57,360 bases of DNA from a virus (Duplodnaviria; Caudoviricetes): positions 1 to 57,360 of IMG/VR virus record IMGVR_UViG_3300032260_000004, one strand, 5' to 3'. The position numbers were made by a program, and so were the translations under genes. The notes under the pieces were generated by a model. The model did not search any database and had not been told where the DNA came from. It was given only the letters and a program-made list of their open reading frames with translations. Below are positions 22,820 through 36,869 of the stretch, piece after piece. The stretch's first letter is position 1, and every line of letters begins with the position of its first letter.

Positions 22820-22843
22820 GTCATCCTCTTCTCGGCTGGATGT

Positions 22844-22898
22844 ATTCCGACCCGGAGTCTTTGCGGCGATCCGATTCCGATCCGAGCCCTTTACGGCG
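22844..22898 (-). promoter_or_regulatory. Tandem 25-nt motif in the scaffold-gene leader
   Basis: CGCCG(T/C)AAAG-N4-CGG(A/G)TCGGAAT twice with a 30-nt period (19/25 identical). Confidence 0.45.
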
Positions 22899-22967
22899 GC
22901 CCGCTCTCCGAACCGTGCCTTCTGTGCCTGAAGACGGGAAGTCTGGTTGGAAGGGAATCTTGGAGGG

Positions 22968-23201
22968 CTACGTCTCGTCTGTCAACTGCCCGAGCGAGAG
23001 TCGGCCTCGATCGTCCTCCGTCACGCGCTCGGCGAACTTCACGGCTTCCTCTACCCGGCGACGTTCCATCGCGATGTCACGCAGCGCATCCGTGTCCCCG
23101 GCATACTGCTCTTCGAGCCGATCGAGACTCGCCAGATGCGCGTCGATCTCTTCGGGTGTGCTCCACGACTGGATCCGCTTGGAGAAGCTGAGGTGCGTCA
23201 T
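22968..23201 (-). CDS. Hypothetical helical protein
   Basis: ATGA overlap with the upstream gene; 77 aa. Confidence 0.6.
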   Translation of the reverse strand: MTHLSFSKRIQSWSTPEEIDAHLASLDRLEEQYAGDTDALRDIAMERRRVEEAVKFAERVTEDDRGRLSLGQLTDET

Positions 23202-23416
23202 GACTGGAACCTGTGGACCTTGTATGTGCCTTCTCGCTCGACGAACGCCAGATCTGTGCGAGCGTCTTCGAGTGCGTCGTCGATGAGCCGGGCGTTGCTC
23301 GGATCGCCTGCGTACTGCCGGCGCAGCTTCGTCAGGTGCCTGATCCACTCGCGGTGCACCTCGGGCGGGTCGTGGTAGCTGGGGCCACCGTCGAGGATCA
23401 TAGCGCCCTCAGCCAC
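23198..23416 (-). CDS. Hypothetical protein
   Basis: 72-aa ORF in a tightly overlapping trio. Confidence 0.6.
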   Translation of the reverse strand: MAEGAMILDGGPSYHDPPEVHREWIRHLTKLRRQYAGDPSNARLIDDALEDARTDLAFVEREGTYKVHRFQS

Positions 23417-23712
23417 TCGAAGCCGGGCCGGTCCACGTTCGCCCGGTAGACGGATAGCTGCTTGAAGTCGTCCAGTGAGAGGTCCACCCGAGCAAGGTAC
23501 TGCGTGAGCATCTCCGCGTCACTGACCGGCTCCAGCCCGAGGTAGAGATCCCAGCCGTGCTGATCGTCGCCGAAGATCACACCTGTCTCGTCGTCCCAGC
23601 CGTAGGCGCTCTCGTCGTGATCCTCGATCGACTCGAATGGTCGCGCCTCGTCGATCGCTTCGGCGGCTTCGGGTGTGAGTCCCTCGGGTACCTCGTTCTT
23701 CCTGATCGTCAT
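23398..23712 (-). CDS. Hypothetical acidic protein
   Basis: 104 aa, coding-like composition. Confidence 0.65.
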   Translation of the reverse strand: MTIRKNEVPEGLTPEAAEAIDEARPFESIEDHDESAYGWDDETGVIFGDDQHGWDLYLGLEPVSDAEMLTQYLARVDLSLDDFKQLSVYRANVDRPGFEWLRAL

Positions 23713-23729
23713 CGTCGTCTCGTTGTCGC

Positions 23730-23800
23730 GAGTCGCGTGCCGGTCAGGGGCTCGTGCCTAGAGGCTCGCTCGCCCTCGTGGGAGCTTGTACCACCGACCC
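23730..23800 (-). ncRNA. Putative structured RNA stem-loop
   Basis: CGCGTGC-G-GGTCGG pairs with CTGACC-G-GCACGCG and encloses an inner hairpin; intergenic. Confidence 0.4.
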
Positions 23801-23866
23801 GCACGCGCTCGCTCGCTTCGCTTCGCTCTCGAACTGCATCGAATCTACGCTTCTACGGCTCGTTCG

Positions 23867-23890
23867 CTACAGCATAGGCTCACCTCCCTT
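23867..23890 (-). other. Extended Shine-Dalgarno followed by a Met-Leu-stop minigene
   Basis: AAGGGAGGTGA-GCCT-ATG CTG TAG. Confidence 0.55.
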
Positions 23891-23892
23891 CC

Positions 23893-23999
23893 TGACAGGC
23901 GGGTGCGGGACTCGAACCCGCTCGGGGACCGTCACAGCCCCGTTCCGTGCTCTGGCGCGCTATCTGTGTGGATAGGTGGGTTGCGCCCGAGCCCCGCCT
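23893..23999 (-). ncRNA. tRNA-like RNA (non-canonical or degenerate tRNA)
   Basis: Acceptor-like stem AGGCGGG/CCCGCCT, perfect T-arm GCGGG-TTCGAGT-CCCGC, 3' GTCA; the internal hairpins do not form a canonical D/anticodon arm. Confidence 0.55.
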
Positions 24000-24005
24000 C
24001 AGCCC

Positions 24006-24287
24006 CTAGCCGGGCTGGTCCTCGTCGTACCACAGCACGCCGCCGCACGTCTCGCAGTAGCAGTCGGGCGGGTGCTGCCAGTCAGGATCGCCGTCTCGTC
24101 GTGCGATCATGCGATACAGGTCCACCAGTTGCGCCATTCGCTTCGCCGTGGCCTCGTCCGGCACGTAGGCGACCGTCGATCCGTCCGGGGCCACGAGCCG
24201 GCACCACGTCGTCATGAACTCACGAGCCTCGGTCGGCGTCATGCGCTTCGTCGTTCGCTCGGCCGGTGTCTCCACTTTGCAGGTCAT
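24006..24287 (-). CDS. Hypothetical protein with C-terminal Cys/His cluster
   Basis: ATGA overlap; HPPDCYCETC. Confidence 0.6.
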   Translation of the reverse strand: MTCKVETPAERTTKRMTPTEAREFMTTWCRLVAPDGSTVAYVPDEATAKRMAQLVDLYRMIARRDGDPDWQHPPDCYCETCGGVLWYDEDQPG

Positions 24288-24487
24288 GCGGCACTGCCTT
24301 TCTTCCGTTTGCACTGCTTGCAGGTGTACGTCTCAGAGCCCGCCTGAGCCTTCGGCACCCCTCGCTCGACTGATCGCCCGCACCGGCAGACGTAGAGCCG
24401 CCTGTGAGGGCTCCAGACGTAGCTGGAGCGATTGTGAGGCGTGCTCCGCCTGCGCTTCGCGGTTTCGGGCTTCTGGACCTTCTTCAC
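24284..24487 (-). CDS. Small basic zinc-finger-like protein
   Basis: CRC...CKQC; GTGA and ATGA overlaps at both ends. Confidence 0.6.
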   Translation of the reverse strand: MKKVQKPETAKRRRSTPHNRSSYVWSPHRRLYVCRCGRSVERGVPKAQAGSETYTCKQCKRKKGSAA

Positions 24488-25032
24488 GAGGCCGTCCTTT
24501 CCGCTGCGACCTTGTTCATGCGCCGATCGATGTTCTGGTCGCGCTTCCAGTCGCCAGAGTGGGCCACCACGCGGGCGGTCCCATCGTAGCTGCTGACGCG
24601 CACCGAGTAGCAGGTCGAGTCGAAGTAGTTCTCGTCGCCCTCGCGGAAGCTCAGGCCCTCAGCCTCGGCGATCGCCGCGCACTCGGACATGAACGCCTCA
24701 GAGTAACTGCGGTAGGTGCTGACCCACGACGAGGCGCGGTAATGCTCACCCTCGTACTCGAAGTCGCCGAGGTACTCCTTCAGGTCGATCATGCCGTCGA
24801 AGCTCACCCGCTGTAACGGCTTGACCACGAGGTCAACGTCGCCCTGAGTTGGGCCGTCCGTCCAGCGAATGTCGATCGAGGATCCGCCTGCGTAGTTGCT
24901 GCTGCGGACGGAGAACTTCTGTCCGGGGAAGTTGGCCTTCAGTTCCTTCCGAATGATCTTCGCGAGTTCCGCTGCGCTGAGCCAGCGAGCCGCCTTCTTC
25001 TCCGGTGCGATGTGGCCTGCGACCTGTGTCAT
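24484..25032 (-). CDS. LPD29-like (large polyvalent protein domain) protein
   Basis: AKIIRKELKANFPGQKFSVRS..YAGGSSIDIRWTDGP signature; first gene after promoter P4. Confidence 0.75.
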   Translation of the reverse strand: MTQVAGHIAPEKKAARWLSAAELAKIIRKELKANFPGQKFSVRSSNYAGGSSIDIRWTDGPTQGDVDLVVKPLQRVSFDGMIDLKEYLGDFEYEGEHYRASSWVSTYRSYSEAFMSECAAIAEAEGLSFREGDENYFDSTCYSVRVSSYDGTARVVAHSGDWKRDQNIDRRMNKVAAERTAS

Positions 25033-25038
25033 GATTCT

Positions 25039-25104
25039 CTCCGTGCTAGGGTCTGGTTGCTGTCCACATCTTGAGTATACATGGACACGCTCGACGTGTC
25101 AACC
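25039..25104 (-). promoter_or_regulatory. Promoter cassette P4 (sigma70 -35/-10, palindromic operator, conserved leader)
   Basis: TTGACA (25102-25097), 17-nt spacer, TATACT (25079-25074); leader GATGTGGACAGCAACCAGACCCTAGCACGGAG. Confidence 0.9.
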
Positions 25105-25638
25105 TCCCGCGTCGAAGTCGTATTGGCGTCGCCTGATTCGCTCGAAGTGTGCAGGGTTCCTGTGCTCGTCCACGGCGATCGCGCACTGAAGCTCTGGCGT
25201 CATGGGAAGCACCTCGTTGACGATCCCCGCGTCGATCCCGTGCTCCAGCGTGGCGAGGTGCTCGGCCTTCGTCCACTGCGCCACAGGCTCGTATGAGAGC
25301 CGTATGAGCAGGAGCGGATACTCGTCCCGCAGTTGCCTCGCGAGCAGGACCAGCGTGCCGTCTACCACCTTCCCTGCGTGCTCCAGCCAGCCATGCGCCA
25401 TAGGGTCCGGGCGGGCGAGGTCGTAGATCAGCCAGCCCTCGACGTAGACCGTCTCGCCGGTCGCCCACGGTGCGGAGTGGAGTGCCTTCAGGGCGTTGCG
25501 CCAGCACGAATGAGGCCGTCGCTCCCCGAGGAACATCGAGGCGCTGCGGCCGTAGTCGATCGGGTTGGGGCAGACGATCCGGCCAGCCATCTCGGCCTTC
25601 AGCATCCGCCCCATCGTCCGACGTATCTGCCGGGTCAT
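25099..25638 (-). CDS. Transglutaminase/papain-like Cys-His-Asp protein
   Basis: SCWRNA...YVEGW...AHGWLEHAGKVVDGT. Confidence 0.6.
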   Translation of the reverse strand: MTRQIRRTMGRMLKAEMAGRIVCPNPIDYGRSASMFLGERRPHSCWRNALKALHSAPWATGETVYVEGWLIYDLARPDPMAHGWLEHAGKVVDGTLVLLARQLRDEYPLLLIRLSYEPVAQWTKAEHLATLEHGIDAGIVNEVLPMTPELQCAIAVDEHRNPAHFERIRRRQYDFDAGG

Positions 25639-26114
25639 GCCAAGACCCACGCCTTCTGTACGCGGTAGCGAGCCGTCGCTCCGTACACTCTGCGCTCGTC
25701 GATGAAGGCAGCGTGGCCTCGGGTGTGGATCACGGCCCGCTCGATCTCCGGGTGATCTCTGAGGAACTGGGCCACGGTCGGGTAGGTGGTGTCGCTCCCA
25801 GCGGTAGGCCCGCTCCATCTCATCGGCACGATCATCTCGATGACCGTCAGGCCGACTTCGGCGATCGAGGTGTACATCCCACCCTTGTTCGTGAAGCTCT
25901 CGTTCAGACCTCTACGGCCGCGTGTGCACCTGTTGAGATTCCGAAGCTGCTCGACTACCACGGGGAGCCACTGAGCGGCCTCTCCGTGCTCGTCAGGGGC
26001 TCCCAGCGCCCTCGCAAGCGTGAAAGCCGCACAGCCGTTCGTGGTGATCCCAGCCTCACGGGCCGCGAGGCCCATGAGGAATCCGTGGTCGCGCTGATAG
26101 GTTCGCTTTGCCAT
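25635..26114 (-). CDS. Papain-like (C39-like) cysteine peptidase-fold protein
   Basis: NGCAAFTLARAL helix-start Cys and TRGHAAFID His/Asp. Confidence 0.5.
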   Translation of the reverse strand: MAKRTYQRDHGFLMGLAAREAGITTNGCAAFTLARALGAPDEHGEAAQWLPVVVEQLRNLNRCTRGRRGLNESFTNKGGMYTSIAEVGLTVIEMIVPMRWSGPTAGSDTTYPTVAQFLRDHPEIERAVIHTRGHAAFIDERRVYGATARYRVQKAWVLA

Positions 26115-26115
26115 G

Positions 26116-26970
26116 TCAGACCCCCAGCGCCTTCAGCGCGGCCTCGCACTGCTTCTCGTACTCGGTGGGGACGTGCTCAGTCGGCTCCACCTTCTCGTGC
26201 TTGATCGCCTTGCGGACCGGAACCTTCCGAGGCTCGTCGATCTCGACGTTCGTGATCTGGCTCACAGGGAACCAGTATTCGTTCGACTTCCGCTTCGGGT
26301 GCGTGATCCTGACGACATCGCCCTCGACCTTCAGCTTGTCGTCGGTGCGAGCTTCCTCGGTCCAGAACTCGATCTGATCGAGATCGTCGCCGAGCACGAG
26401 CCACGAGTATTGAACCAGCAGGCAGATCGCCTTCGGGGTGGCTTTCTTGATCTTGCCCCGGTAGCGGTAGTTCTCCGGCCGGTCCTTCGTGGACGGTGGT
26501 GCGAGGAAGCCCTTCTGCTCAGCGATCCACGGAGTAATCTCGATCGTCGCCATGCGGCCCTCGGCCTGCTCCAGCGAGCCGACGCCTTCGGGCTTCTCGC
26601 GCTCAGTCTGAGCCTTCCGGGGAGCCTGATCGAGATCGTCCTCGGCCTCGATCTGGGAGATCGGCAGCCACGTCTCGAACTCGGTGTCAGTGACGAGTCG
26701 AGCCTTCAGTGCGGCGATCGCCTCGGGGGAGGTGTCGGCGTTCCAGTCGATCCCGAGGTGGTCACAGCAGATCGGGCCGATACCGAGTTGCTGAGAGATC
26801 GCATGGGTGAGTTCGCGGTTGCAGTTCCAGCAGAAGACCGAGCCCTCGACCGCAGCGGATCCCTTCACGTGGATCGCCTTCTGCGTGCGCTCGATCACTT
26901 CCACGTCAACGATTCGCGGCAGGTTGTTCTTCGCCGCGAGCCACTTCCGGATCGTGATTCGTGTCGTCAT
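26116..26970 (-). CDS. DUF6011-like zinc-finger protein
   Basis: CWNCNRELTHAISQQLGIGPIC; first gene after promoter P3. Confidence 0.75.
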   Translation of the reverse strand: MTTRITIRKWLAAKNNLPRIVDVEVIERTQKAIHVKGSAAVEGSVFCWNCNRELTHAISQQLGIGPICCDHLGIDWNADTSPEAIAALKARLVTDTEFETWLPISQIEAEDDLDQAPRKAQTEREKPEGVGSLEQAEGRMATIEITPWIAEQKGFLAPPSTKDRPENYRYRGKIKKATPKAICLLVQYSWLVLGDDLDQIEFWTEEARTDDKLKVEGDVVRITHPKRKSNEYWFPVSQITNVEIDEPRKVPVRKAIKHEKVEPTEHVPTEYEKQCEAALKALGV

Positions 26971-26976
26971 CGGGTG

Positions 26977-27044
26977 CTCCGTGCTAGGGTCTGGTTGCTG
27001 CCCACACCACTAGTTTACACGGATACGTTCGACGTGTCAACCCC
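26977..27044 (-). promoter_or_regulatory. Promoter cassette P3
   Basis: TTGACA (27040-27035), 17-nt spacer, TAAACT (27017-27012); same leader ...CAGCAACCAGACCCTAGCACGGAG. Confidence 0.88.
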
Positions 27045-27051
27045 CCCCCGG

Positions 27052-30000
27052 CTATTGCCCGAAGGTTGGCGGGTCCGGCACTAGGTCGTCGGGATCGAAC
27101 CACGGCGCATCGTCTGACTGTTGCCAGAACTCGCGGACCTCGCGGATCAGGGCAGCCGCTTCGGCCGTGTGAATCGACTCCACGGAGACGGCGTAGTTGA
27201 GAGCGCTCTCCATCTCGTCAGGGCTGACGAGTCCGAGCGCTTCGAGGCGCTGGAGGAACTCCCACCAGTCGGCGTACCGGAACCTGCTTGGCTGCGGCTG
27301 GAGAAGGTTGAGCGTGGTCATGGGGCCACCGAGCACAACGACCTCGCCTTCGGTCATGGCACCGAACCCGGTCCACGGCGTAGCGAGGATCCGCTCCTTC
27401 GGCACGACGGCGATCGAGAGGAAGCCCCGCCTGAACTCGTCGAGCGACCGGGCGTAGCTGGTCGCCGTCTGCGGGTCGAAGCTGAAGCTGTTGGCGGGCT
27501 GCCACTGGACGGATCGTGCCCGCCCGAGGAAGCTCGCCACGCGCTCCGCCTCTTCGGGCGGTGGCTTCATGCCGCGCATGACGACGACGTACTCGCCGGG
27601 GATCCGCTGCTGCGTGGCTTCGTACATGCCGTCGAGCATGGCGTCGAGCAGGTCCTTCGAGTCCCGGTAGATCTTCTCCCCGAGGTTTATGTTCTCTCTG
27701 GCCTGCTCCCGCGCCTCGGCGATCGCTGCGGCGTAGCGCACGTCATCGACCACCGTGAACGTCTTCAGGAACTCGGCGAAAGCACCCTCTTCCTGCATGA
27801 GCGCGAGCGCGTACTGCGGCTTCTCGATCACGTAGTCGATAAGCTCCTGAGCAACCGCCGTCTGCGTGTGCTTGATCCTGCCGTAGACGACGCGGGCGTC
27901 CGCAGCGAACGCCGTCTCGGCTCGCCGGCCCAGTTCCCTGTAGCGCCGCAGCCGCTTCAGCACCTCGGGCGAGAGAGCCTGACCGTACTGCGCCTCGATC
28001 TCACGGAGCGCCTTCCGGGCCGCTCGGTCGCCGGGTGACGTGTTCACGGCCGCGAGGCGCTCGTTGTAGACCTTCGTGAGCGGCCTCCGGTACTCGGTCA
28101 GGTCCGGCAGGCCACGGAAGCCCATGTGCGACATCGCCGGCCGCTTCACGTCGAAGTGTGACCGGATGGCGAACTGCGTGGCGATCGCATGCGGCGTGCC
28201 GGACGAGGATCCAGACCAGCCGTCCACGATGCGGGTCACGGCACGTTCGACCTCGATGCGCGTGCTGACACGCCGGAGCACGGAGAACCGCTGAGCGCCG
28301 GAGAGATTCTGAAGCCAGATGTAGGGCGCGTGCTCGTGCGTCTCCGCCAGCCGGGCGAAGAGCCGGTTCTCGTCGATCCGGCTGAGCGGCTGACCGCCGA
28401 ACGCGGTCGCCCGCAGGTACTCTTCAGCGAGCAGGCGATCACGGACACTCTCCCAGTCGATCTCGTAGCTACCGCCCGCAGGGTAGATCCGGGCTGCGGA
28501 ACGGGGCTGCCCCTCGACAGCCAGCAGCTTCACTACGTCGTCGATCTCACCCGCGTCGAGCCGCCTCTGAATCGCCTCGCGCATCGCGATCTGAGCAGCG
28601 ACCTGAGCGTCTGTCAGGTGTGTGGTGATCGCGCTCGGGATGAAGGCATCACGGCGTCCCTCCCGAAGCGCGTCCAGCAGGTCGCGTGCCCATGCCTCGT
28701 AGTCGTTCTCACTGATCCCGAACAGGACGGAAGCCACGCCGCCCTGAGACGCATCGTATAGCTCGGGCTGGCGTGCGCTCGGTACGCCGCCTCGGATGTC
28801 CTGAATCTTGCTCGGTGGCCGGAGCGCTGGCCCGCCCTCGACCCACAGGATCCCCTCGCCCACGAAGTCCTCGATCTTCGGGACCTCGACGAGCCTGCGG
28901 TTCCGTTCCTTCAGGAAGTCGCGAGCGCCCTCGCGATCGAAGAACCGGCCACGGCTCGACACGAACCCGGCCGTCCAGTCGCCAGCCCGCCCCGGCAGCT
29001 TCTTGGCAAGCTCGACGTGGATAGCACCATATTCCCAGATGATCTCCCCCGTCTTCCGGTTCCGGAACGCCACCGCGTCGATGAACTCACCGACGAGCCT
29101 CGGGTCCGGATCGACGGCCGCCGTGAAAGCCGGCGTGACGCTCACCCCTACCAACTCCGGCAACTCGCCCCGCTTGACGACGATCGGCACGGTGGTCAGG
29201 TCGAGTTGTACGGCAGCAGCCAGCCGGTGAGCGCCGTCGTCCACGACCATGACGCCGGTATCGAGATCGACCGTGATCTGGATCGGCTGCTTGATCCCAT
29301 CCTTCTTGATACTGGCGAGCAGGGCAGCGCTCGGCCGGGTGGATGGCTCCAGTAGTGGCAGCAAGTCGTCCACACGCGCGACCTGTGCCGCGTCCGCTGC
29401 GCTCGTGCCGATCGCATAGCGCTGAGGGAACGCCGCCTCGGCCACCTCGTCCCAGATCGCGCCTACACCGTCCGTATCGAGAGCGCGCAGCACGTCGAGC
29501 GACCGCTGCCGCTGGATCCGGTGCTTCGCCATGATCCGGAGCGAGCCCGGTACGCTGGCCGCACGGCCGCCCATGCCCCGGATGTACTCCTGCGCCCGGC
29601 CTCGCGTGAACCACTCATTCAACTGGTCGGCGAGTACCGTCTCGACCCACCGATCGCCTGCCGTAGCGTCCACGAAGCCGACGACGTTGAGGATCTCCTT
29701 CTCGAAGGCCCGTGCGTAGGTGAGCGCCTGCGCCTCCGTCATCTCGCCGAGCGCGATCGACTCGCCGAGGTCGCGGGCCGTCTCCAGCGGTAGGATCGGA
29801 TTGTCGCGATCTAGCGGCCCGCCCATGCGCCTCAGCTTCGGCAACGTCTCGGCTCGGAACTCAGCGACCTCAGCAGCCAGCCAGTCGCGGATCTCGTCGA
29901 GGCCCTCGGCCGCTTCGTCGAGGTAGCGGTTCGCCTGTGCTGCCCACTGCTGCTTGTCCATCTTCGAGAACAGGACCGCGAGGGCGTTCGCCCGCTTCGC

Positions 30001-33000
30001 GTTCTCGATCGCCTCTTCCATCGACTCACGGAAGAACCGAGGGCTCATCCACTTTTCGAGGGGCTCCCAGCGCGCGTCTCGCTGTACGGCCCGGTCGATC
30101 CGCTGGAACCACCGCCTCAGTTCTTCCAGTCGGCGGCCCACGTCCGCGCCCTCGTTCGTGAAGGCATCGGCCAGCACGTCCGCTTCGGCGACAAGCTGCG
30201 CTCGGATCTCCTGTAGGATCGCCGGCTGCCCAGCATCGAGTTGAATCGCGTTCGTATACTCGATGATCTCGTCGATGTCGTTCACATCAACGTGCGGACC
30301 AGTCTTCGGGACGACGCGCGGCACCCGCTTGTAGTCGTAGCCGCGACTGGCGGCGAACCGAACGCTCTGCTCGTGTGAGATCAACTCGAACGCCTCAAAC
30401 CTCGTGATCGCATCGAGGCGTTCCTCCACGGGAAGCAGGTGCCGGCGCGACTCATCGAAGATCACGATGTTCTCGCGATAGACCCGCTCGGCGATCTCCT
30501 GCTGAAGCCGGTACCACTCCTGCTCCGCCTTCGACGGAAAGAGCGTTGTCGTCTGGTCGAAGTCGGCCTCGCCCACCGCCTCGCCGAACTTCCGCTTGCG
30601 CGACACCTCAAAGGTGTACTTCCGACTGAAGACGATCGCCGTTGCCGGCTCCCAGCGGTGGATCTGCTCCCAGTCCGAGATTGACAGCGCCACGCTGGCG
30701 ACATGTGACGGGTGATTGTGAACGACGACGCCGCCCCTCATGAGCGCCGAGTCGGCTTCGGTCAGCGTGACGGTTCCACCGATACCCGCGCGGTAGACCA
30801 CCGGCTTGCCGTCGGGTCGGAAGACGAAGGCGTGTTCGATCGGCTGCTTGATGAGAAAGCCCTCGGCGATCGAGATATTGATAGCGAGTTGCGCTGGCCC
30901 CGGATCGCCGAAACGAGGAAGACGACGAGGCGGAAGGAACGGCCCGGACCGGATCTCCGTCAGCCACTCGTTCATGTCCTCCATCGCGATGTAGAAGGCG
31001 TCCGTATCGAACTCCAGCCGCTCCGGGACCTCGATTCCCGCCAGACGCGCGGCCTGCACGGTGGCAGCCCAGTCGATCGGCATCGACCAGCGCTCGGTCA
31101 GTGCAGCGATGTCGTCCGGCGCGAGGCCCAGCCCCTCGCGGTACGTGTCGATCAGGAGCTTCACGTCGTCGGCCTTCACGCGAGCGCCGGCCACTACGTC
31201 ACTCCCTAGCTTCTTGAACCGTTCCTTCAGGGACGTGCTAAGCGCTGCCGGTGCGGCGACTCGCTGCCACCACTGGCCGGTCGTCCGCTTCAGGTCGTAG
31301 ATCCACGAGTCGTCGATCCCGACGCCCACACCGATCGCGCCCCACGGAGTGCCCTCGCCACCGATCGCGTTGTACGCCTCATCCCAGCTTTCGATGAAGC
31401 CGCTGGAGGTGGCCCGGCCTGTGGTGAGGCCCAGTGCATCGCCAGTCGCTCGCAACTCAAGGGACGATGGCGGCCTCTGGTGGTAGAGGCTCCAGTCGAA
31501 GTCGGGGTCGATCTCCACGCTGTAGTCAAAGTCGTAGAGTTCGGCCCACTCCTCCCACGTCTGATCTCGGACCCACGCATCGTACTGCTTGTCCAGCAGG
31601 GCTCTAGTCTCGCCTGCGAGCCGAGCTTCCTTCCATGCGTCGTAGTCGCGGAAAACGATCCAGCGCGTGTCGTCCGGACCGGGCCATGTCGGGCTTGACG
31701 GTCGGTACTCGTCAAGCGTGCCGGTCGGCCACTTGTTCTCCAGCGCGATCTTCTGGTGGATGTCGTCCCAGACCCGCTTACCGGGTCGGCCGTCGCGGAC
31801 GTGACTCACGCCGTCCTTCCAGAGCTTCGACCGGAAGTCTGGGCCGTCAGGCTTCGGCTTCAGCCAGAAGGTTGCCGGTCCGCAGGTGACGACTTCCTCG
31901 AACGGCGTCCACTTCGTAAAGGCTGTGTTGATGTCCCGCTTCGAGAACGACCAGAGCGCGAGCGTTTCGGGGTCCTCGTAGCGCACCGCGAAGACGGGGT
32001 GATTGTGGTGGATCCTCTTCCCATTGAAGAAGCGCCGGCCCACCGTGGGGGTTATGCTGGTCATGTCGCCTTCGCTGTAGTAGACGACCCTCCCAGTCTG
32101 CCGGTCGATCGAGGTCAGGTGCTCGTTGTACTGTCGAGCGCTCCACACCTTCAGCGCATCGGTCAGCTTATCGAGGTTGCCGTTCGCGGCGACCGGATAG
32201 GGCTCCGGATCCGCGTACTTGGTCAGGCCGAAGCCTTCGCGATCGCCGTGTCGCATATGCCAGCCGACCCCGAACGTCGGCAGTGAGACGCCAGCCGTAG
32301 CGCCGGCACGGTTGACGCCGAATAGCTTCTGTGAGATCCGGAGCGCTGCGCCCATCTCCACCAGCTTCAGGATTCGGGACAGGTAGGCGTCCGCCGATTC
32401 GCCGGCTCCGGCGATCCCGGTGAGCACACGGCCGATCACAGGTACGTCCACACCGATCGCGGAGAGCGCTCTGTCCACCAGCCGGCTCTGAACCGCACGG
32501 TCCACGCCTGTCGCCCGGCCGGCCACCGTAGCTGCGGTGCGGCCGACACCCGGTCCGCGTCGTGGAGTCTTCGCGATCCTTCGGCTCTCACCGATCCCGA
32601 TCGCCTGCCGGAGCGACTCGCCCTCGGATCGCGAGAGCTTCTCCCTGCGGATCACCTTCTTCAGTGAGATCTGGAGTTCGGGACCCGGCTTCTTCGGCTT
32701 GTCCCAGTCCTCGACGGGCCGTAGCTGGTGCGTGAGGAAGCACAGGCAGCGCGGGTGTGGCCGGGCCGGGATCGCATCGGTCGGGTAGACGCCCGCGCCG
32801 AGTCCGTACAGGTCGGCCTCAGCGAGCACGTCACACGAGTCTCGCTTGGAGTGCCGGTGGCTGCGGTTCCACTTCACCGTCTCGACGACAGGTGACTCGT
32901 CCGCTGCGATCGAGTTCGCCTCGTGCTCAGCGTTCGACGCCTCGGTACGTGCGATCAGGCGCGCCCTCCGTGAGACGAGCCCGGCCTGCTTCCTGACGGC

Positions 33001-33615
33001 GGCCACCTCGGTTGTCGTGGGATCCTCGATCCCGAGGTACTTCTCCAGCGTTTGCTTCCCGATCAGCCGGCGATCGAGCAGAAGCTCGGGCGGGATGTCC
33101 TCTGACCCACGCACCAGCAGCCGGAGTTGCTTCTCGACGCTCCGGTTGTCCGTACCACGAAGCGCAGCGGTAGCGAGGATCTGCTCTGCTGCCCTGTCAG
33201 CGTCCCTGCGGAGTGTGGCGAAGGTGGAGGCGTACCCGTCGCGTGCGAGGACGGCCTGCGTCGCGCGAGTCCCTACACCGCCCAGTTGCGCGGCGACGGC
33301 ATCCGGGTCGAACCCAGCCTCGGCGATCACTTCGGCCGTGGCCTCGGCCTGCATCTGGGCCATCGTGCGAGCTTGCAGGTCGGACGAGCGGATCGTGGAG
33401 CGGGCGAGTTCCTCGTTCAGCCGGTGCAGGATCGCCTTCACTTCGCGCTGAGTCGCTGCCTGTGACGACGTGGCCCGCCCCGACTGCATGAGTTTGCTCA
33501 GGTCGTCGGCGTACTGCTCCAGTAGGTTCGCCAACTCACGCTGCTGCTTCCGAGAGAGCGCGAGCGAGGTGCGGCGTGCGGCCCCGACGCGCTTCTGATA
33601 CGCGGATCTTGGCAT
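27052..33615 (-). CDS. MuF (SPP1 gp7-like head morphogenesis) polyvalent protein, 2187 aa, with two JAB-like, one ParB-like and one ADP-ribosyltransferase-like domain
   Basis: Follows the portal gene. MuF motifs LIARTE and HPRCLC; two E..HNHP..S..D motifs; DGIKQPI..DDGAHRL; VMRG..NSFS..EGEVVV. Confidence 0.85.
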   Translation of the reverse strand: MPRSAYQKRVGAARRTSLALSRKQQRELANLLEQYADDLSKLMQSGRATSSQAATQREVKAILHRLNEELARSTIRSSDLQARTMAQMQAEATAEVIAEAGFDPDAVAAQLGGVGTRATQAVLARDGYASTFATLRRDADRAAEQILATAALRGTDNRSVEKQLRLLVRGSEDIPPELLLDRRLIGKQTLEKYLGIEDPTTTEVAAVRKQAGLVSRRARLIARTEASNAEHEANSIAADESPVVETVKWNRSHRHSKRDSCDVLAEADLYGLGAGVYPTDAIPARPHPRCLCFLTHQLRPVEDWDKPKKPGPELQISLKKVIRREKLSRSEGESLRQAIGIGESRRIAKTPRRGPGVGRTAATVAGRATGVDRAVQSRLVDRALSAIGVDVPVIGRVLTGIAGAGESADAYLSRILKLVEMGAALRISQKLFGVNRAGATAGVSLPTFGVGWHMRHGDREGFGLTKYADPEPYPVAANGNLDKLTDALKVWSARQYNEHLTSIDRQTGRVVYYSEGDMTSITPTVGRRFFNGKRIHHNHPVFAVRYEDPETLALWSFSKRDINTAFTKWTPFEEVVTCGPATFWLKPKPDGPDFRSKLWKDGVSHVRDGRPGKRVWDDIHQKIALENKWPTGTLDEYRPSSPTWPGPDDTRWIVFRDYDAWKEARLAGETRALLDKQYDAWVRDQTWEEWAELYDFDYSVEIDPDFDWSLYHQRPPSSLELRATGDALGLTTGRATSSGFIESWDEAYNAIGGEGTPWGAIGVGVGIDDSWIYDLKRTTGQWWQRVAAPAALSTSLKERFKKLGSDVVAGARVKADDVKLLIDTYREGLGLAPDDIAALTERWSMPIDWAATVQAARLAGIEVPERLEFDTDAFYIAMEDMNEWLTEIRSGPFLPPRRLPRFGDPGPAQLAINISIAEGFLIKQPIEHAFVFRPDGKPVVYRAGIGGTVTLTEADSALMRGGVVVHNHPSHVASVALSISDWEQIHRWEPATAIVFSRKYTFEVSRKRKFGEAVGEADFDQTTTLFPSKAEQEWYRLQQEIAERVYRENIVIFDESRRHLLPVEERLDAITRFEAFELISHEQSVRFAASRGYDYKRVPRVVPKTGPHVDVNDIDEIIEYTNAIQLDAGQPAILQEIRAQLVAEADVLADAFTNEGADVGRRLEELRRWFQRIDRAVQRDARWEPLEKWMSPRFFRESMEEAIENAKRANALAVLFSKMDKQQWAAQANRYLDEAAEGLDEIRDWLAAEVAEFRAETLPKLRRMGGPLDRDNPILPLETARDLGESIALGEMTEAQALTYARAFEKEILNVVGFVDATAGDRWVETVLADQLNEWFTRGRAQEYIRGMGGRAASVPGSLRIMAKHRIQRQRSLDVLRALDTDGVGAIWDEVAEAAFPQRYAIGTSAADAAQVARVDDLLPLLEPSTRPSAALLASIKKDGIKQPIQITVDLDTGVMVVDDGAHRLAAAVQLDLTTVPIVVKRGELPELVGVSVTPAFTAAVDPDPRLVGEFIDAVAFRNRKTGEIIWEYGAIHVELAKKLPGRAGDWTAGFVSSRGRFFDREGARDFLKERNRRLVEVPKIEDFVGEGILWVEGGPALRPPSKIQDIRGGVPSARQPELYDASQGGVASVLFGISENDYEAWARDLLDALREGRRDAFIPSAITTHLTDAQVAAQIAMREAIQRRLDAGEIDDVVKLLAVEGQPRSAARIYPAGGSYEIDWESVRDRLLAEEYLRATAFGGQPLSRIDENRLFARLAETHEHAPYIWLQNLSGAQRFSVLRRVSTRIEVERAVTRIVDGWSGSSSGTPHAIATQFAIRSHFDVKRPAMSHMGFRGLPDLTEYRRPLTKVYNERLAAVNTSPGDRAARKALREIEAQYGQALSPEVLKRLRRYRELGRRAETAFAADARVVYGRIKHTQTAVAQELIDYVIEKPQYALALMQEEGAFAEFLKTFTVVDDVRYAAAIAEAREQARENINLGEKIYRDSKDLLDAMLDGMYEATQQRIPGEYVVVMRGMKPPPEEAERVASFLGRARSVQWQPANSFSFDPQTATSYARSLDEFRRGFLSIAVVPKERILATPWTGFGAMTEGEVVVLGGPMTTLNLLQPQPSRFRYADWWEFLQRLEALGLVSPDEMESALNYAVSVESIHTAEAAALIREVREFWQQSDDAPWFDPDDLVPDPPTFGQ

Positions 33616-33622
33616 CTACCGC

Positions 33623-35368
33623 TCACGGCACCTCTATGGCGAGACTGGGCGCACCGCCCGCCTCTTCGGCTGCGATCGCTCCGGAGATGATGTCCTCGAC
33701 TTCGCGTTCCTCGGCACTCTGTGCGCTGGCCTGCGTCTTCGCGGTCTGGTTGACCTCGGCGCTCTGCCTGAGTTCGGCCTCGATCGCTTCCTCGACCACA
33801 TCGTCTGTCGCGAGCCCCTTGTTCCTGACGGCGGCCATCACGGCGCGCGTCGTCAGGGTCGGGCTCTCCACACCGGCCAGCACGAGAAGCTCGAACAGTT
33901 CCCGGATCGAGTCGATCAGCGGGGTGAGTTCGTACTCGCGCGGCCACTCGACGGAACCGCTCGGCTTCGCGTTCCCGAACCTCATCTCGATGAAGTGGAT
34001 CGCCGTGTTCTGGGCCTGCTCCAGTTCGCTCGCCATGAGGGCCAGTCGTGGGGCTCTGACATCGGCGAATCCGGCCTGCTTGGAAGCGCCGGACGACTCG
34101 GGCGTACTGGTCGCTTCGAGTGCCGCCAGTTGACGCGCCTCTTCGAGCTTGCGGCCGAGCCGCGTCTCGAAGGTCTGAGCGACCACCGCCCCGGTCGATC
34201 CGTCGTAGATCGACGGCACGTTCCCGGTCTTCTTGTTGACCGGCACGGGCACCGTCTTCGACCCGCCCTTCATCTTCTCGACGGCGAGGTTGTAGCCCTC
34301 GGTGTCCACGCCGAGAAGGAACTGCATCGACTGAGCGGCGTCCCACACGTCGAAGTCGGCGGCACTGGACAGGTTCATGTAGGCGATCGCCGCCTGCGAG
34401 ATCTCCACGGTACCGGATCGGCTCATGGCTGCGTGCTCGGGGGTGCTCTTCGCTCGCTCGTAGAACAGCGGCCACAGCGGGATCTCGCCCTTCGTACCCC
34501 CCCAGTCGCCTCGTGCGTCGTCCGGCTCGATCTCTTCGGCTTCGTCGCGAGTCGAAGATTCCTCCCACATCGGCTTCTGGTCGGCATCGAACCGGAACCA
34601 GCCACCGCCAGCGAACTCGTCGCCTAGCCCGGCGAAGCCCTTCGTCGTCATGAGCAGGTAGCGCATCTCGGGGTCGTTGCCCTCCAGCCGGCCCTTCTCG
34701 ATGCGCGGGTTCCGCTCGTGGTAGACGATCACGGCAAACTGAAGCCGGCCGTTGGCGATGAACCAGTTGGTCACGTCGAGCGGCGAATACTCCACGAGGT
34801 AGGGCCGCTTGCCCTCGATCTCGTCGGCCCGTGTCTCCGGTGCGTCCACAGGCGACTCGGCCATGATCCAGCGGTGCCCGGTCGCCATCGCGTGCTGCAT
34901 GGCGGTGGCCCAGAAGTTGTCCCACTGGGAGCCGTCGTTCCCTACACCGTCAGCGTTGTAGTAGATCAGTTCGGCCTGCGACGGCTCGCCGTCGTCTTCG
35001 GTGGAGATCTCACCGAGCGTACCGAAGTCGAGCCCTTCCTCGGGTGTGGGCCGCTTCCGCATGAGGTGCCCGACGATCGTGGTGGCGAACAGGTCGCCGA
35101 AGTTGATGTAGACCGCCTGCCGCTGCCTCATCGAGTAGTGGTCCTGCTCGTTCCTCCGGAACAGGCCGACCTCGCGCATGGCTTGGATCTGTTGCTCTTC
35201 CAGCCCTGCTTCAGCCACACTCGCCGCTGCACCGACCTCCCAGTCGAACTCGCGTAGCTCGTTGAGCACCGGCTCCCCGCCGTAGAAGCGCGTCTCCATC
35301 CGCCGCCACATGTTCTCGTTCGCGGTATAGATCGGATGCTTCATCCCCAGCCACTCGTAGCGTGCCAT
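33623..35368 (-). CDS. Portal protein
   Basis: 581 aa directly after terL; RPYLVEYSPLDVTNW and ESSGAS motifs. Confidence 0.85.
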   Translation of the reverse strand: MARYEWLGMKHPIYTANENMWRRMETRFYGGEPVLNELREFDWEVGAAASVAEAGLEEQQIQAMREVGLFRRNEQDHYSMRQRQAVYINFGDLFATTIVGHLMRKRPTPEEGLDFGTLGEISTEDDGEPSQAELIYYNADGVGNDGSQWDNFWATAMQHAMATGHRWIMAESPVDAPETRADEIEGKRPYLVEYSPLDVTNWFIANGRLQFAVIVYHERNPRIEKGRLEGNDPEMRYLLMTTKGFAGLGDEFAGGGWFRFDADQKPMWEESSTRDEAEEIEPDDARGDWGGTKGEIPLWPLFYERAKSTPEHAAMSRSGTVEISQAAIAYMNLSSAADFDVWDAAQSMQFLLGVDTEGYNLAVEKMKGGSKTVPVPVNKKTGNVPSIYDGSTGAVVAQTFETRLGRKLEEARQLAALEATSTPESSGASKQAGFADVRAPRLALMASELEQAQNTAIHFIEMRFGNAKPSGSVEWPREYELTPLIDSIRELFELLVLAGVESPTLTTRAVMAAVRNKGLATDDVVEEAIEAELRQSAEVNQTAKTQASAQSAEEREVEDIISGAIAAEEAGGAPSLAIEVP

Positions 35369-35378
35369 CGGTCAGTCC

Positions 35379-36869
35379 TCAGCGTTGAAGCGATGCCCAC
35401 TCGCGCGGGTCATATGGCTTGGCTCCGAACTCCTTCGCCCACCACGCGAGAGCGCCGGCAGCCATCGTGTCCGGCAGGTGCCCGCTGGGCATATAGAGAT
35501 CCTCGTTGGTCGCGTACAGGTGCTCCAGATAGGCATAGTCGATGCGCGGGTAGACGAACTCCGTCCCCTTCTCGATCGCGGCGACGTAGTTCCACAGCAT
35601 GTCCGTCCGCTCCTTCCGGTTCCGGAAGTCGAACGGCATGCTCTCCACTTCGAGAAAGTCGTCACAGACAGATCCTACTCCTGTCGCGTCGTGCGCGCTG
35701 GGACCACCGTACTCTTCCACGCGCTCGTTGTAGGCCCGGATCATGAGGGGCCACGGCTTCCGCCCGTGTCGTGCCCACGCTGCGAGGCGATCCGGCTGGC
35801 TGCCTGAAGTCTCTTCCATCGTGTGAATGATCGTCCAGTCCACGTCACGCGCCCAGTCGGTGCCGTGGTAGAACGATCGCAGGTGGAGAGGCTCGACCAG
35901 CCGGACCACCTCTGAGGCACGCCCTTGAAACTGACCGAGACTCCTATCGAATAGCGCCTCGACCGCTTCGGAGTCAATGGCTCGCGTCTTCGGGCTCGGC
36001 TTCTGAAGCTCGTACTCGATGTCCCACATCGAGAGCGGCACCTCGCCCTTCTTCCGATCGACCTCGGAGTGGGCCAGCCAGCCGTGCGGTTCGAGGTTCT
36101 CGCGGTAGCACCACTCGAAGACCGGCCAACCGCGATCGGTGGCCCGCTTCAGGATCTCCGTCATGGTGCCGTCCGGCTTGTGGTGCGTGCTGGAGCAGAC
36201 CGTCTGCGGGGTCACGCCACGCGCGGCCATCGTCTGACCCATCGCCGCGTCGAAGATGTCGAGATCCATCTCGTCGCACTCGTCGAGTCGGAGCCGCTGC
36301 GGGTGCGGCCCACGTACCGACGAGCCCGAGGCCATGAGCGCCTTGACGAAGGCCCCGTTCGAGAGCCGCATCTCACGCTTCGTCGGGTCCGAGACGAGCA
36401 TGTGCTTCGGAGCGCGCGGGCTGTCCCAGAACTTCCCGTAGGCGTTCGGGTCCGTGCCGGCGATGTAGGAGTGGACGCGCTGCGACTGCTCACCGGATCC
36501 GCCCAGCAGGTTGACGGCAGCGCCTAGTGTGATCGCCTCCGTCAGCGTGAGCAGGGCGAGCAGGAAGCTCTTACCGCCGAAGCCACGAGAGGCGAGCCAC
36601 ACGCAGAGCGGCGTCTCAGCGAAGTAGGCATGCGTGAAGGCGTCGAACGGCGAGACGTGGTGTGGACAGCAGCGCTCCCGAGGGATCCAGACGTTCAGCG
36701 TATCGTAGACCCACTCGTGCAGAGCGTCTGGCGTGGTCGGCGCGTCCGGTGAGGCATGCTGCGGGGTGTCATACGACTGGAGTCGGTCGGCGATCCCCCG
36801 GACGAAGTTCGCCTCGGCGTTGCCCGACTCGGGGACCGCAAGGCCGCTGCCTCGCGTCCTCCAGTTCAC
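35379..36869 (-). CDS. terL: Terminase large subunit
   Basis: Walker A SRGFGGKS, Walker B LRLDECDE, nuclease motifs GTDWA, HDATGVG and HLPD. Confidence 0.92.
   Translation of the reverse strand: MNWRTRGSGLAVPESGNAEANFVRGIADRLQSYDTPQHASPDAPTTPDALHEWVYDTLNVWIPRERCCPHHVSPFDAFTHAYFAETPLCVWLASRGFGGKSFLLALLTLTEAITLGAAVNLLGGSGEQSQRVHSYIAGTDPNAYGKFWDSPRAPKHMLVSDPTKREMRLSNGAFVKALMASGSSVRGPHPQRLRLDECDEMDLDIFDAAMGQTMAARGVTPQTVCSSTHHKPDGTMTEILKRATDRGWPVFEWCYRENLEPHGWLAHSEVDRKKGEVPLSMWDIEYELQKPSPKTRAIDSEAVEALFDRSLGQFQGRASEVVRLVEPLHLRSFYHGTDWARDVDWTIIHTMEETSGSQPDRLAAWARHGRKPWPLMIRAYNERVEEYGGPSAHDATGVGSVCDDFLEVESMPFDFRNRKERTDMLWNYVAAIEKGTEFVYPRIDYAYLEHLYATNEDLYMPSGHLPDTMAAGALAWWAKEFGAKPYDPREWASLQR

Follow-up and report, generated by a model that had tools for sequence, protein, structure and literature searches.

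Organization of the locus

We analysed a window of 57,360 bases that comprises one IMG/VR virus record (IMGVR_UViG_3300032260_000004), classed as linear and rated 80% complete by CheckV, and we describe here the gene at positions 27052-33615 of its minus strand together with the protein that this gene encodes, P0001. The open reading frame (ORF) spans 2187 codons and is uninterrupted by stops. A preliminary description of the DNA had put the gene at 11% of the genome; it occupies 11.4% of the record, a share that, at this completeness, does not necessarily hold for the genome. The gene order is large terminase (TerL), portal and P0001, with genes for scaffold-like, major capsid and tape-measure proteins farther downstream (Table 1). 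We propose, with a probability of roughly 0.7, that P0001 is a phage-type polyvalent protein, that is, a head-packaged carrier of several enzymes.

The N-terminus had been described as MuF, and profile comparison bears this out: residues 3-303 match the head-protein family phrog_1657 (E 8.2e-25), with weaker matches to seven further head-protein PHROGs, and the MuF part is 42% identical to that of P0002, its closest MuF relative. In a tblastn comparison of the whole of P0001 with 50,697 GenBank phage records, the matches to 154 records were all confined to residues 6-315, and the features matched are annotated as head morphogenesis, minor capsid or MuF-protease fusion proteins. N-terminal profile homology and a gene directly after the portal gene are marks of MuF proteins of the SPP1 gp7 type, and P0001 has both.

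Beyond the MuF part, relatives are few. A HMMER scan with residues 440-1639 against 1.84 billion representative proteins returned 15 proteins at E<=0.001, the query included. The only two full-length homologues among those 1.84 billion are P0003 (2553 residues) and P0004 (2687 residues), each 28% identical to P0001; one further protein, P0008 (207 residues), is a stand-alone version of the second JAB-like domain described below, and the other eleven are matched by the ParB part alone. A word-indexed protein search with the full length found P0002 alone, and nothing when the C-terminal 548 residues were searched at near lengths; IMG/VR scans with P0001, P0003 and an alignment as queries found nothing, and a megablast of the gene against GenBank phages gave no match.

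Two JAB-like domains

What is the basis for placing two JAB-like domains in one MuF protein? The motifs noticed in the preliminary description were found again at nt 31933-32124 (motif 1) and nt 30673-30837 (motif 2), and both are kept in the full-length homologues. Because they are invariant at 28% identity, we regard the motifs as more than chance resemblances. When the two domains are compared by hhalign, they match with a probability of 97.2% (E 3e-11, 116 columns) and with the Glu, HNH and SxxD positions in register, domain 1 having nine extra residues between HxH and SxxD relative to domain 2. By this measure the two domains are paralogues, and the JAB-like character of domain 1 is supported by its profile-profile homology to domain 2. 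Among seven aligned domains, the only invariant residues are the Glu, two Gly, the His-Asn-His, the Ser and the Asp (the JAMM metal site); in domain 2 of P0004, compared in a separate alignment, the Ser column is Asp and a Ser lies two residues earlier. Because each domain has a complete E/HxH/SxxD metal site, both are probably zinc hydrolases.

An AlphaFold2 model of residues 470-1110, built from a four-row alignment, has a mean predicted local distance difference test score (pLDDT) of 54.5. Domain 2 (model residues 435-633, protein residues 904-1102) is modelled at pLDDT 70-87 and domain 1 at about 50-75; at that confidence, secondary-structure elements follow one another in the same order in both. 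A VIA-align comparison of the model with 48,161 representative chains placed proteins that are JAB/MPN by title at ranks 1-9 and 11. Pyrococcus JAMM1 (5ld9, Z 8.5, root-mean-square deviation 3.3, 105 aligned residues), RadC (2qlc, Z 7.7), AfJAMM (1r5x, Z 7.3) and Cap3 (9ild, Z 7.3) lead, followed by BRCC36, a bacterial Ubl-deubiquitinase, Rpn11 and Sst2, and then by deaminases at Z 5-6. The listed JAB/MPN matches lie within model residues 437-639, mostly 438-629, so that the structural match covers domain 2 and hardly domain 1. A Z near 8 would be middling if taken alone; in our view it is the uniform JAB/MPN family at the top ranks that carries weight. Foldseek placed RadC first in the PDB (E 0.016, probability 0.92), with no PDB match at E<=0.001. 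Against BFVD, a collection of predicted viral structures, it returned 26 matches at E<=0.001, the best of which are uncharacterised phage proteins of 182-291 residues (E 2e-11 to 2.5e-9), and among the 50 BFVD matches listed, eight are named 'Minor capsid protein' (485-633 residues) and seven RadC or MPN. The model thus supports a JAB/MPN fold for domain 2. A predicted complex of domains 1 and 2, as an intramolecular MPN-MPN pair, scored 0.01; it gives no verdict and we draw nothing from it.

The domain also occurs in cultured phages. A tblastn search with P0008 gave five phage records at E<=0.01, matches that are weak but consistent. In Dorea phage DO134P1 (3948-5456 of L003), a gene that follows an SPP1-type portal gene (Pfam E 3e-126) encodes a 502-residue 'hypothetical protein' with a MuF domain (Pfam E 2e-14), the C-terminal third of which matches P0008 and carries the motif THNHPSGG...SFTD; this protein would offer a tractable cultured-phage model for MuF-JAB cargo. 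In Streptococcus phage Javan394 (4677-5492 of L004), a gene for a JAB-like protein of 271 residues lies two genes upstream of the large terminase gene, and in Aphanizomenon phage CL131 the match falls inside the structural module. The ESM Atlas, which we used for leads only, placed domain 2 nearest to unnamed clusters of about 170-200 residues from bacteria and phages (Uroviricota) at 0.94-0.95, with Prok-JAB at 0.83 and RadC at 0.81. We note separately a glycine tag of GGRG/GGRS type upstream of the JAB-like domain in P0008 (residues 23-27) and in the 271-residue Javan394 protein (residues 67-71).

On this evidence, we assign the two domains to the JAB/MPN superfamily, where they form a RadC-like clade outside Pfam that is a recurrent MuF cargo. 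We keep this clade separate because the Pfam models for RadC (PF04002), Prok-JAB (PF14464) and DUF4329/Tox-JAB-2 (PF14220) find nothing in the window at E<=10. It shares with the RadC and Tox-JAB clades the deaminase-like JAB fold, the E/HxH/S/D residues and an HNHP-type motif, and RadC (2qlc) is both the top Foldseek match in the PDB and tied for the top of the VIA comparison. Unlike those clades, it has a conserved C-terminal helical extension (with H1081) and is found either as a phage gene by itself or joined to MuF. An action against CBASS or Bil-type conjugates, which the preliminary description had suggested for the JAB domains, gains no specific support, as RadC, archaeal JAMM, Cap3 and the Bil deubiquitinase lie within about 1-2 Z units.

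Characterised JAB/MPN enzymes are peptidases. For the RadC and Tox-JAB clades, by contrast, the predicted action is on nucleic acids, as nucleases (PMC5512222 and PMC3482391, the parts accessible to us), and the P0001 domains may have either role, nuclease or peptidase. Were they peptidases, they might be the protein's own processing enzymes, standing in for a zincin MPTase and cutting the chain at head maturation or after ejection without being directed at the host. The MPTase is the usual solution to processing (PMC5512222, in part), P0001 contains no HExxH motif anywhere (nor a Walker A motif), and both domains are retained in all three full-length homologues. Set against this are the predicted nucleic acid-directed action of the clades that the domain resembles, and its occurrence alone (P0008, Javan394) or as the sole cargo of a MuF protein (the Dorea phage), in which case hardly anything needs processing; in P0001, no cleavage sites were found. 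We consider it unlikely that self-processing is the role of the two domains, and prefer to see them as part of an enzymatic cargo.

A probable C-terminal ADP-ribosyltransferase module

The last part of the chain contains, at nt 27343-27576, the R-S-E motif of an ADP-ribosyltransferase (ART) that had been read from the translation: R2014, S2043 and E2089-x-E2091. A profile made from the C-terminal 203 residues of P0001 and P0003, searched among longer proteins, detected P0017, P0018, P0019 and P0020 (E 2e-9 to 9e-7). P0017 joins the ART module to a portal domain and a 2H phosphoesterase, P0018 has the ART module and no other assigned domain, and P0020 carries a HEWGH zincin-like motif. P0019 (438 residues) matches the profile at E 2.1e-8 and itself matches Pfam DRAT (PF07357) at 36.7 bits, above the cut-off of 25. 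An alignment of six sequences has 13 invariant columns, among them R2014-G2015, S2043-F2044 and E2089-x-E2091; the Arg, Ser and ExE, present in all six relatives, are kept also in P0004, and their order and spacing are those usual for R-S-E ARTs. The assignment of the triad to strands comes from a low-confidence model alone.

A second conserved element, the W-x-x-S-S motif, precedes the ART core in every relative, P0002 included, and the DRAT match of P0019 begins at this motif. The distance from motif to core varies from about 185 residues in P0001 to a few dozen (by eye) in P0019, and the P0003 counterpart of the spacer is a gap of about 585 residues (residues 1627-2212).

From the triad and the transitive homology to a member of Pfam DRAT, the C-terminal module is likely to be an ART. 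The ExE form of the triad goes with arginine as the acceptor, which suggests that this DRAT-like ART is arginine-specific. The kinship with DraT (PF07357) runs through relatives: two of the six aligned members match the DRAT model, P0019 passes its cut-off, and P0002 matches it at E 0.0016. Unlike DraT, P0001 itself has no DRAT match, is accompanied by no DraG-like glycohydrolase and is a phage head protein instead of belonging to nitrogenase regulation. It also differs from ART-PolyVal, which belongs to the H-Y-D clade, whereas the triad here is R-S-E. The nearest named ESM Atlas clusters for the C-terminus, again as leads only, are DUF4765 and DRAT (0.90), and a tblastn search of phages with P0019 gave three records, all annotated 'hypothetical'.

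Domain-wise AlphaFold modelling, which the preliminary description had proposed as a check, gave a divided answer: JAB-like domain 2 folds as a JAB, and the model of the ART region (residues 1603-2187, three-row alignment) has a mean pLDDT of 37.9 and was judged unusable. A VIA search with the latter returned only coiled coils or single helices and says nothing on the ART fold.

Two of the C-terminal relatives contain repeated peptides. In P0020 a peptide of about 22 residues (SFGGDRSAAGRYAAEQRWKGH) occurs three times, and in P0017 a Gly/Cys-rich peptide of about 24 residues occurs twice, each copy before a different module. They may serve polyvalent proteins as tags that head a module or as sites of cleavage.

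A ParB-like insertion

Between the second JAB-like domain and the ART module, P0001 contains a ParB-like motif, as had been noticed; the stretches matched by Pfam and PHROG models cover residues 1431-1483 (nt ~29167-29325). Five ParB-type PHROGs match, the best being phrog_6218 (E 2.7e-8), and the one NCBIfam match is weak (TIGR00180, E 7.9e-4). The nearest relative of this part, P0005, is 54% identical over 83 residues. The nearest relatives all have ParB_N matches, three of the eight scanned pass the cut-off, and several are large proteins with LPD38, SLT or DUF7178 domains. The sequence DGAHRLAAA corresponds to the arginine box (DGxHR / GxxRxxA) of the ParB/Srx superfamily; the corresponding stretch of P0002 is EGHHRLAA. 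The ParB-like call is supported by a profile match under threshold together with relatives above it, and the domain is probably a nucleotide-binding or DNA-nicking module of ParB/Srx type.

The second half of the insertion is a small region in which GFVSSRGRFFDR stands at residues 1550-1561, where the preliminary description had placed it. For residues 1501-1602, neither HMMER (1.84 billion representatives) nor Pfam found a relative. Nine sub-segments of P0001, compared with Pfam at E<=5, matched ParB_N and, weakly, DUF5751, and no other family.

Evolution of the protein

How do these modules behave between relatives? The gene for P0003 lies on a 16.4-kb metagenome contig (L002) in the order terminase, portal, P0003, scaffold-like, capsid. 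Between the P0001 phage and this contig, TerL is 67% identical, the portal protein 58%, the capsid protein 66%, the scaffold-like protein 45% and the MuF protein 28%. Because 28% stands against 58-67% for TerL, portal and capsid protein, the MuF protein evolves much faster than its structural neighbours.

Local alignment shows that P0001 and P0003 run collinearly through residues 6-1394, 1603-1837 and 2006-2173. Residues 1395-1602, the ParB-like domain and the GFVSS region, are absent from P0003 and P0004; since collinearity with P0003 breaks there, they are an insertion specific to P0001. Before the ART core, P0003 and P0004 have about 585 residues versus about 170 in P0001; both have long C-terminal tails, and P0004 also has an insert of about 105 residues. 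P0002 (1495 residues) carries a different cargo behind its MuF domain, with a ParB-like nuclease match and a weak DRAT match. Compared in this way, the family is one of module swapping on a conserved frame. The P0004 insert lies at residues ~960-1065, ahead of its second JAB-like domain, and is not in P0001 or P0003; it looked by eye like a GNAT/acetyltransferase, an idea that was dropped as Pfam gave no match.

Remaining regions and neighbouring genes

The features of P0001 and the adjacent genes are collected in Table 1.

Table 1. Features of the P0001 gene and its neighbours (positions in the window; residues of P0001).
Feature	Residues	Position	Strand	Remarks
TerL gene		35379-36869	-	precedes portal gene
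Portal gene		33623-35368	-	phrog_145, E 2.3e-27
Whole gene, proposed MuF-anchored polyvalent protein P0001	1-2187	27052..33615	-	start 7 nt past portal gene end
MuF / head-morphogenesis domain	1-345	32581..33615	-	RPHPRCLC motif; phrog_1657
Gly/Ala-rich linker	346-469	32209..32580	-	
JAB-like domain 1	470-640	31696..32208	-	E498, H537-N-H539, S558-K-R-D561; hhalign to domain 2
Middle region	641-904	30904..31695	-	conserved in P0003/P0004; low model confidence
JAB-like domain 2	905-1105	30301..30903	-	E927, H966-N-H968, S978-I-S-D981; C-terminal helix with conserved H1081
Conserved, probably helical region	1106-1394	29434..30300	-	collinear with P0003/P0004
ParB/Srx-like N-domain	1395-1500	29116..29433	-	DGAHRLAAA motif (1460-1468); part of insertion
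Small region with GFVSSRGRFFDR	1501-1602	28810..29115	-	second half of insertion
Conserved region	1603-1837	28105..28809	-	ends in W-x-x-S-S helix motif (GWSGSSSGTP, ~1799-1808)
Variable helical spacer	1838-1984	27664..28104	-	W-x-x-S-S motif to ART core
Putative ART core	1985-2135	27211..27663	-	YEATQ helix, R2014-G, S2043-F-S, E2089-G-E2091
C-terminal tail	2136-2187	27055..27210	-	unassigned; much longer in P0003/P0004
DUF6011 protein gene, 284 residues		26116-26970		next gene downstream of P0001; E 7.8e-8

For the linker and for residues 641-904, 1106-1394, 1501-1602 and 1603-1984, the searches gave no relatives beyond P0003 and P0004, and modelling gave nothing confident. Residues 383-402 of the linker are the most hydrophobic stretch of P0001; a membrane-spanning linker was considered and dropped, since the hydropathy maximum (Kyte-Doolittle mean 1.54) is only borderline. 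A single MGGRAAS stands at residues 1348-1354 (window ~29554-29574) and is not conserved in P0003 or P0004.

Downstream, about 4.2 kb (22820-27051) with several ORFs, the DUF6011 gene among them, separate the MuF gene from the scaffold-like gene; the counterpart stretch of L002 (12798-14025) is about 1.2 kb long and has one ORF, of 154 residues. Compared with L002, the head module has an insertion here. Within it, a 182-residue ORF (24484-25032, minus strand) encodes a stand-alone LPD29 ('large polyvalent protein associated domain 29'; Pfam E 1.4e-24, phrog_15549 E 3.2e-20); this module, characteristic of polyvalent proteins, thus has a gene of its own, 2 kb downstream from the MuF gene. Directly past the MuF stop codon, TTGACA-17 nt-TAAACT at 27012-27040 (minus strand) is a candidate sigma-70-like promoter for the downstream genes. 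The window contains no DUF4417 gene.

Discussion

P0001 has at least two domains of disparate activity in one chain and is encoded with virion or late genes, which is what defines a polyvalent protein. In the papers that describe these systems (PMC5512222, PMC9503650 and PMC5576092, cited here and below for the parts accessible to us), MuF belongs to the heads of portal-terminase phages and carries fused effector domains, which are packaged there and injected; polyvalent proteins are injected multi-enzyme effectors, often cut by a zincin MPTase (PMC5512222); and T4 Alt, the prototype of an injected R-S-E ART, travels in the phage head and has host proteins, RNA polymerase among them, as its substrates (PMC5512222, PMC9503650). 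We propose that P0001 would work along the same lines. First, by means of the MuF domain, a few copies would be located at the portal of the procapsid, a position described for SPP1 gp7. Second, the remaining ~1840 residues would hold at least four enzyme-like modules, namely two JAB, one ParB/Srx and one ART. Third, P0001, whole or in fragments, would exit the head together with the DNA and target proteins and nucleic acids of the host within minutes of the start of infection, in the manner of Alt. Since no zincin peptidase is present, cleavage of the chain in cis could, speculatively, be ascribed to the JAB domains and to no other part. We infer delivery from the MuF anchor and from the place of the gene after the portal gene; packaging and all of the enzymatic activities and targets are likewise predictions.

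With the phage-type polyvalent proteins surveyed by Iyer et al. 2017 (PMC5512222), P0001 shares very large size, a place among head and packaging genes, anchoring by MuF, unrelated enzymatic domains and module swapping. It differs from the accessible part of that survey in three ways: a phage MuF protein contains two JAB-like domains and lacks the usual MPTase; a DRAT-like ART with an R-S-ExE triad ends at least five multi-domain proteins; and the ParB part matches profiles of ParB_N type, not ddrB-ParB. T4 Alt shares the R-S-E ART and serves as a functional model for the C-terminal module (PMC5512222, PMC9503650). There is no detectable sequence similarity between Alt and P0001, and Alt is neither MuF-fused nor part of a multi-enzyme chain.

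A number of results weigh against reading P0001 as such a carrier. At the N-terminus, the Pfam model Phage_Mu_F (PF04233) scores 13.2 bits, under its cut-off of 29.6. The three Pfam JAB models named above are silent, and in the window the Pfam DRAT, ART-PolyVal (PF18760) and ddrB-ParB (PF18763) models likewise have no match at E<=10. With ParB_N (PF02195; cut-off 26.3 bits), the whole protein scores 17.1 bits and a 100-residue piece 21.5 bits. The ART call consists of the triad and one transitive step, only two of six relatives match DRAT, the model of the region is unusable, and sequence and profile searches of solved structures with the C-terminus and with three alignments gave chance matches only. 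About half of the residues (the linker and residues 641-904, 1106-1394 and 1501-1984) have no domain assignment. Finally, passage through a tail requires a chain of ~240 kDa to be unfolded or cut, and neither an enzyme for such processing nor a site of cleavage was found.

Could P0001 then be mainly a structural protein, an internal head or ejection protein that carries inactive enzyme relics? The half of the chain without an assignable domain, predicted with low confidence to be largely helical, and the failure of curated Pfam enzyme-family models to match would suit such a protein. Yet the residues needed for catalysis in three enzyme types are all conserved at 28% overall identity, which is unexpected for relics, and we regard this explanation as very improbable.

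A second precedent is offered by the MuF polymorphic toxins (Jamet et al. 2017; PMC5576092, in part). Under this explanation the C-terminal ART would be the toxin of a temperate phage or lysogen, used against competitors or in the choice between lysis and lysogeny, and would be neutralised by an immunity protein. The characterised EFV toxin, from an Enterococcus faecalis prophage, likewise has MuF at its N-terminus and an ART at its C-terminus, delivery with the DNA has been proposed there too, and 14% of 191 MuF toxins are putative ARTs. Those toxins, found in temperate phages, have a single toxin domain, and a small ORF usually comes next to the gene on its downstream side, whereas the several further enzyme modules of P0001 do not fit a single toxin head. 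The record, rated only 80% complete, has no match to a tyrosine or serine recombinase, integrase or resolvase and encodes no ADP-ribosylglycohydrolase, and the gene that follows is not a small coupled ORF; it encodes the DUF6011 protein and has its own promoter-like site. We think it quite improbable that P0001 is a toxin of this kind, and the polyvalent carrier remains our preferred reading.

Taking this carrier one step further, the RadC-like JAB may be an undescribed and widespread class of MuF cargo, found solo, fused to MuF in proteins named 'minor capsid protein', and in tandem in P0001, that would remove peptide-linked modifications at the start of infection. Its substrates might be host defence conjugates (ubiquitin-like Bil tags or Cap2-primed CD-NTases) or, in place of a zincin MPTase, the joints of its own polyprotein, and it would be delivered with an arginine-specific DRAT-like ART that reprogrammes a host protein. 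We offer this as a conjecture that is probably wrong in this full form.

To what extent is the protein new? The preliminary description had allowed that the combination and its unassigned domains might be. The general design is a known one, that of polyvalent proteins (PMC5512222, in part); the versions of the domains and their combination are new. Full-text searches of the literature listed no description of a MuF-JAB fusion, and supplements (the files of PMC5576092 and the architecture collection of PMC5512222) may list such proteins.

Finally, P0001 is a clean example of both the rate and the mode by which such proteins change, with an effector at 28% identity beside structural proteins at 58-67% and a whole ParB module gained. 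It also brings out two domain clades that curated libraries miss, a RadC-like JAB recurrent on MuF proteins, in cultured phages too, and a DRAT-like ART that ends several unrelated polyvalent proteins. Polyvalent head proteins are thought to decide the first minutes of infection for many phages, yet hardly any have been examined experimentally; for the domains described here, activities and targets are within reach of ordinary expression and mutant assays.

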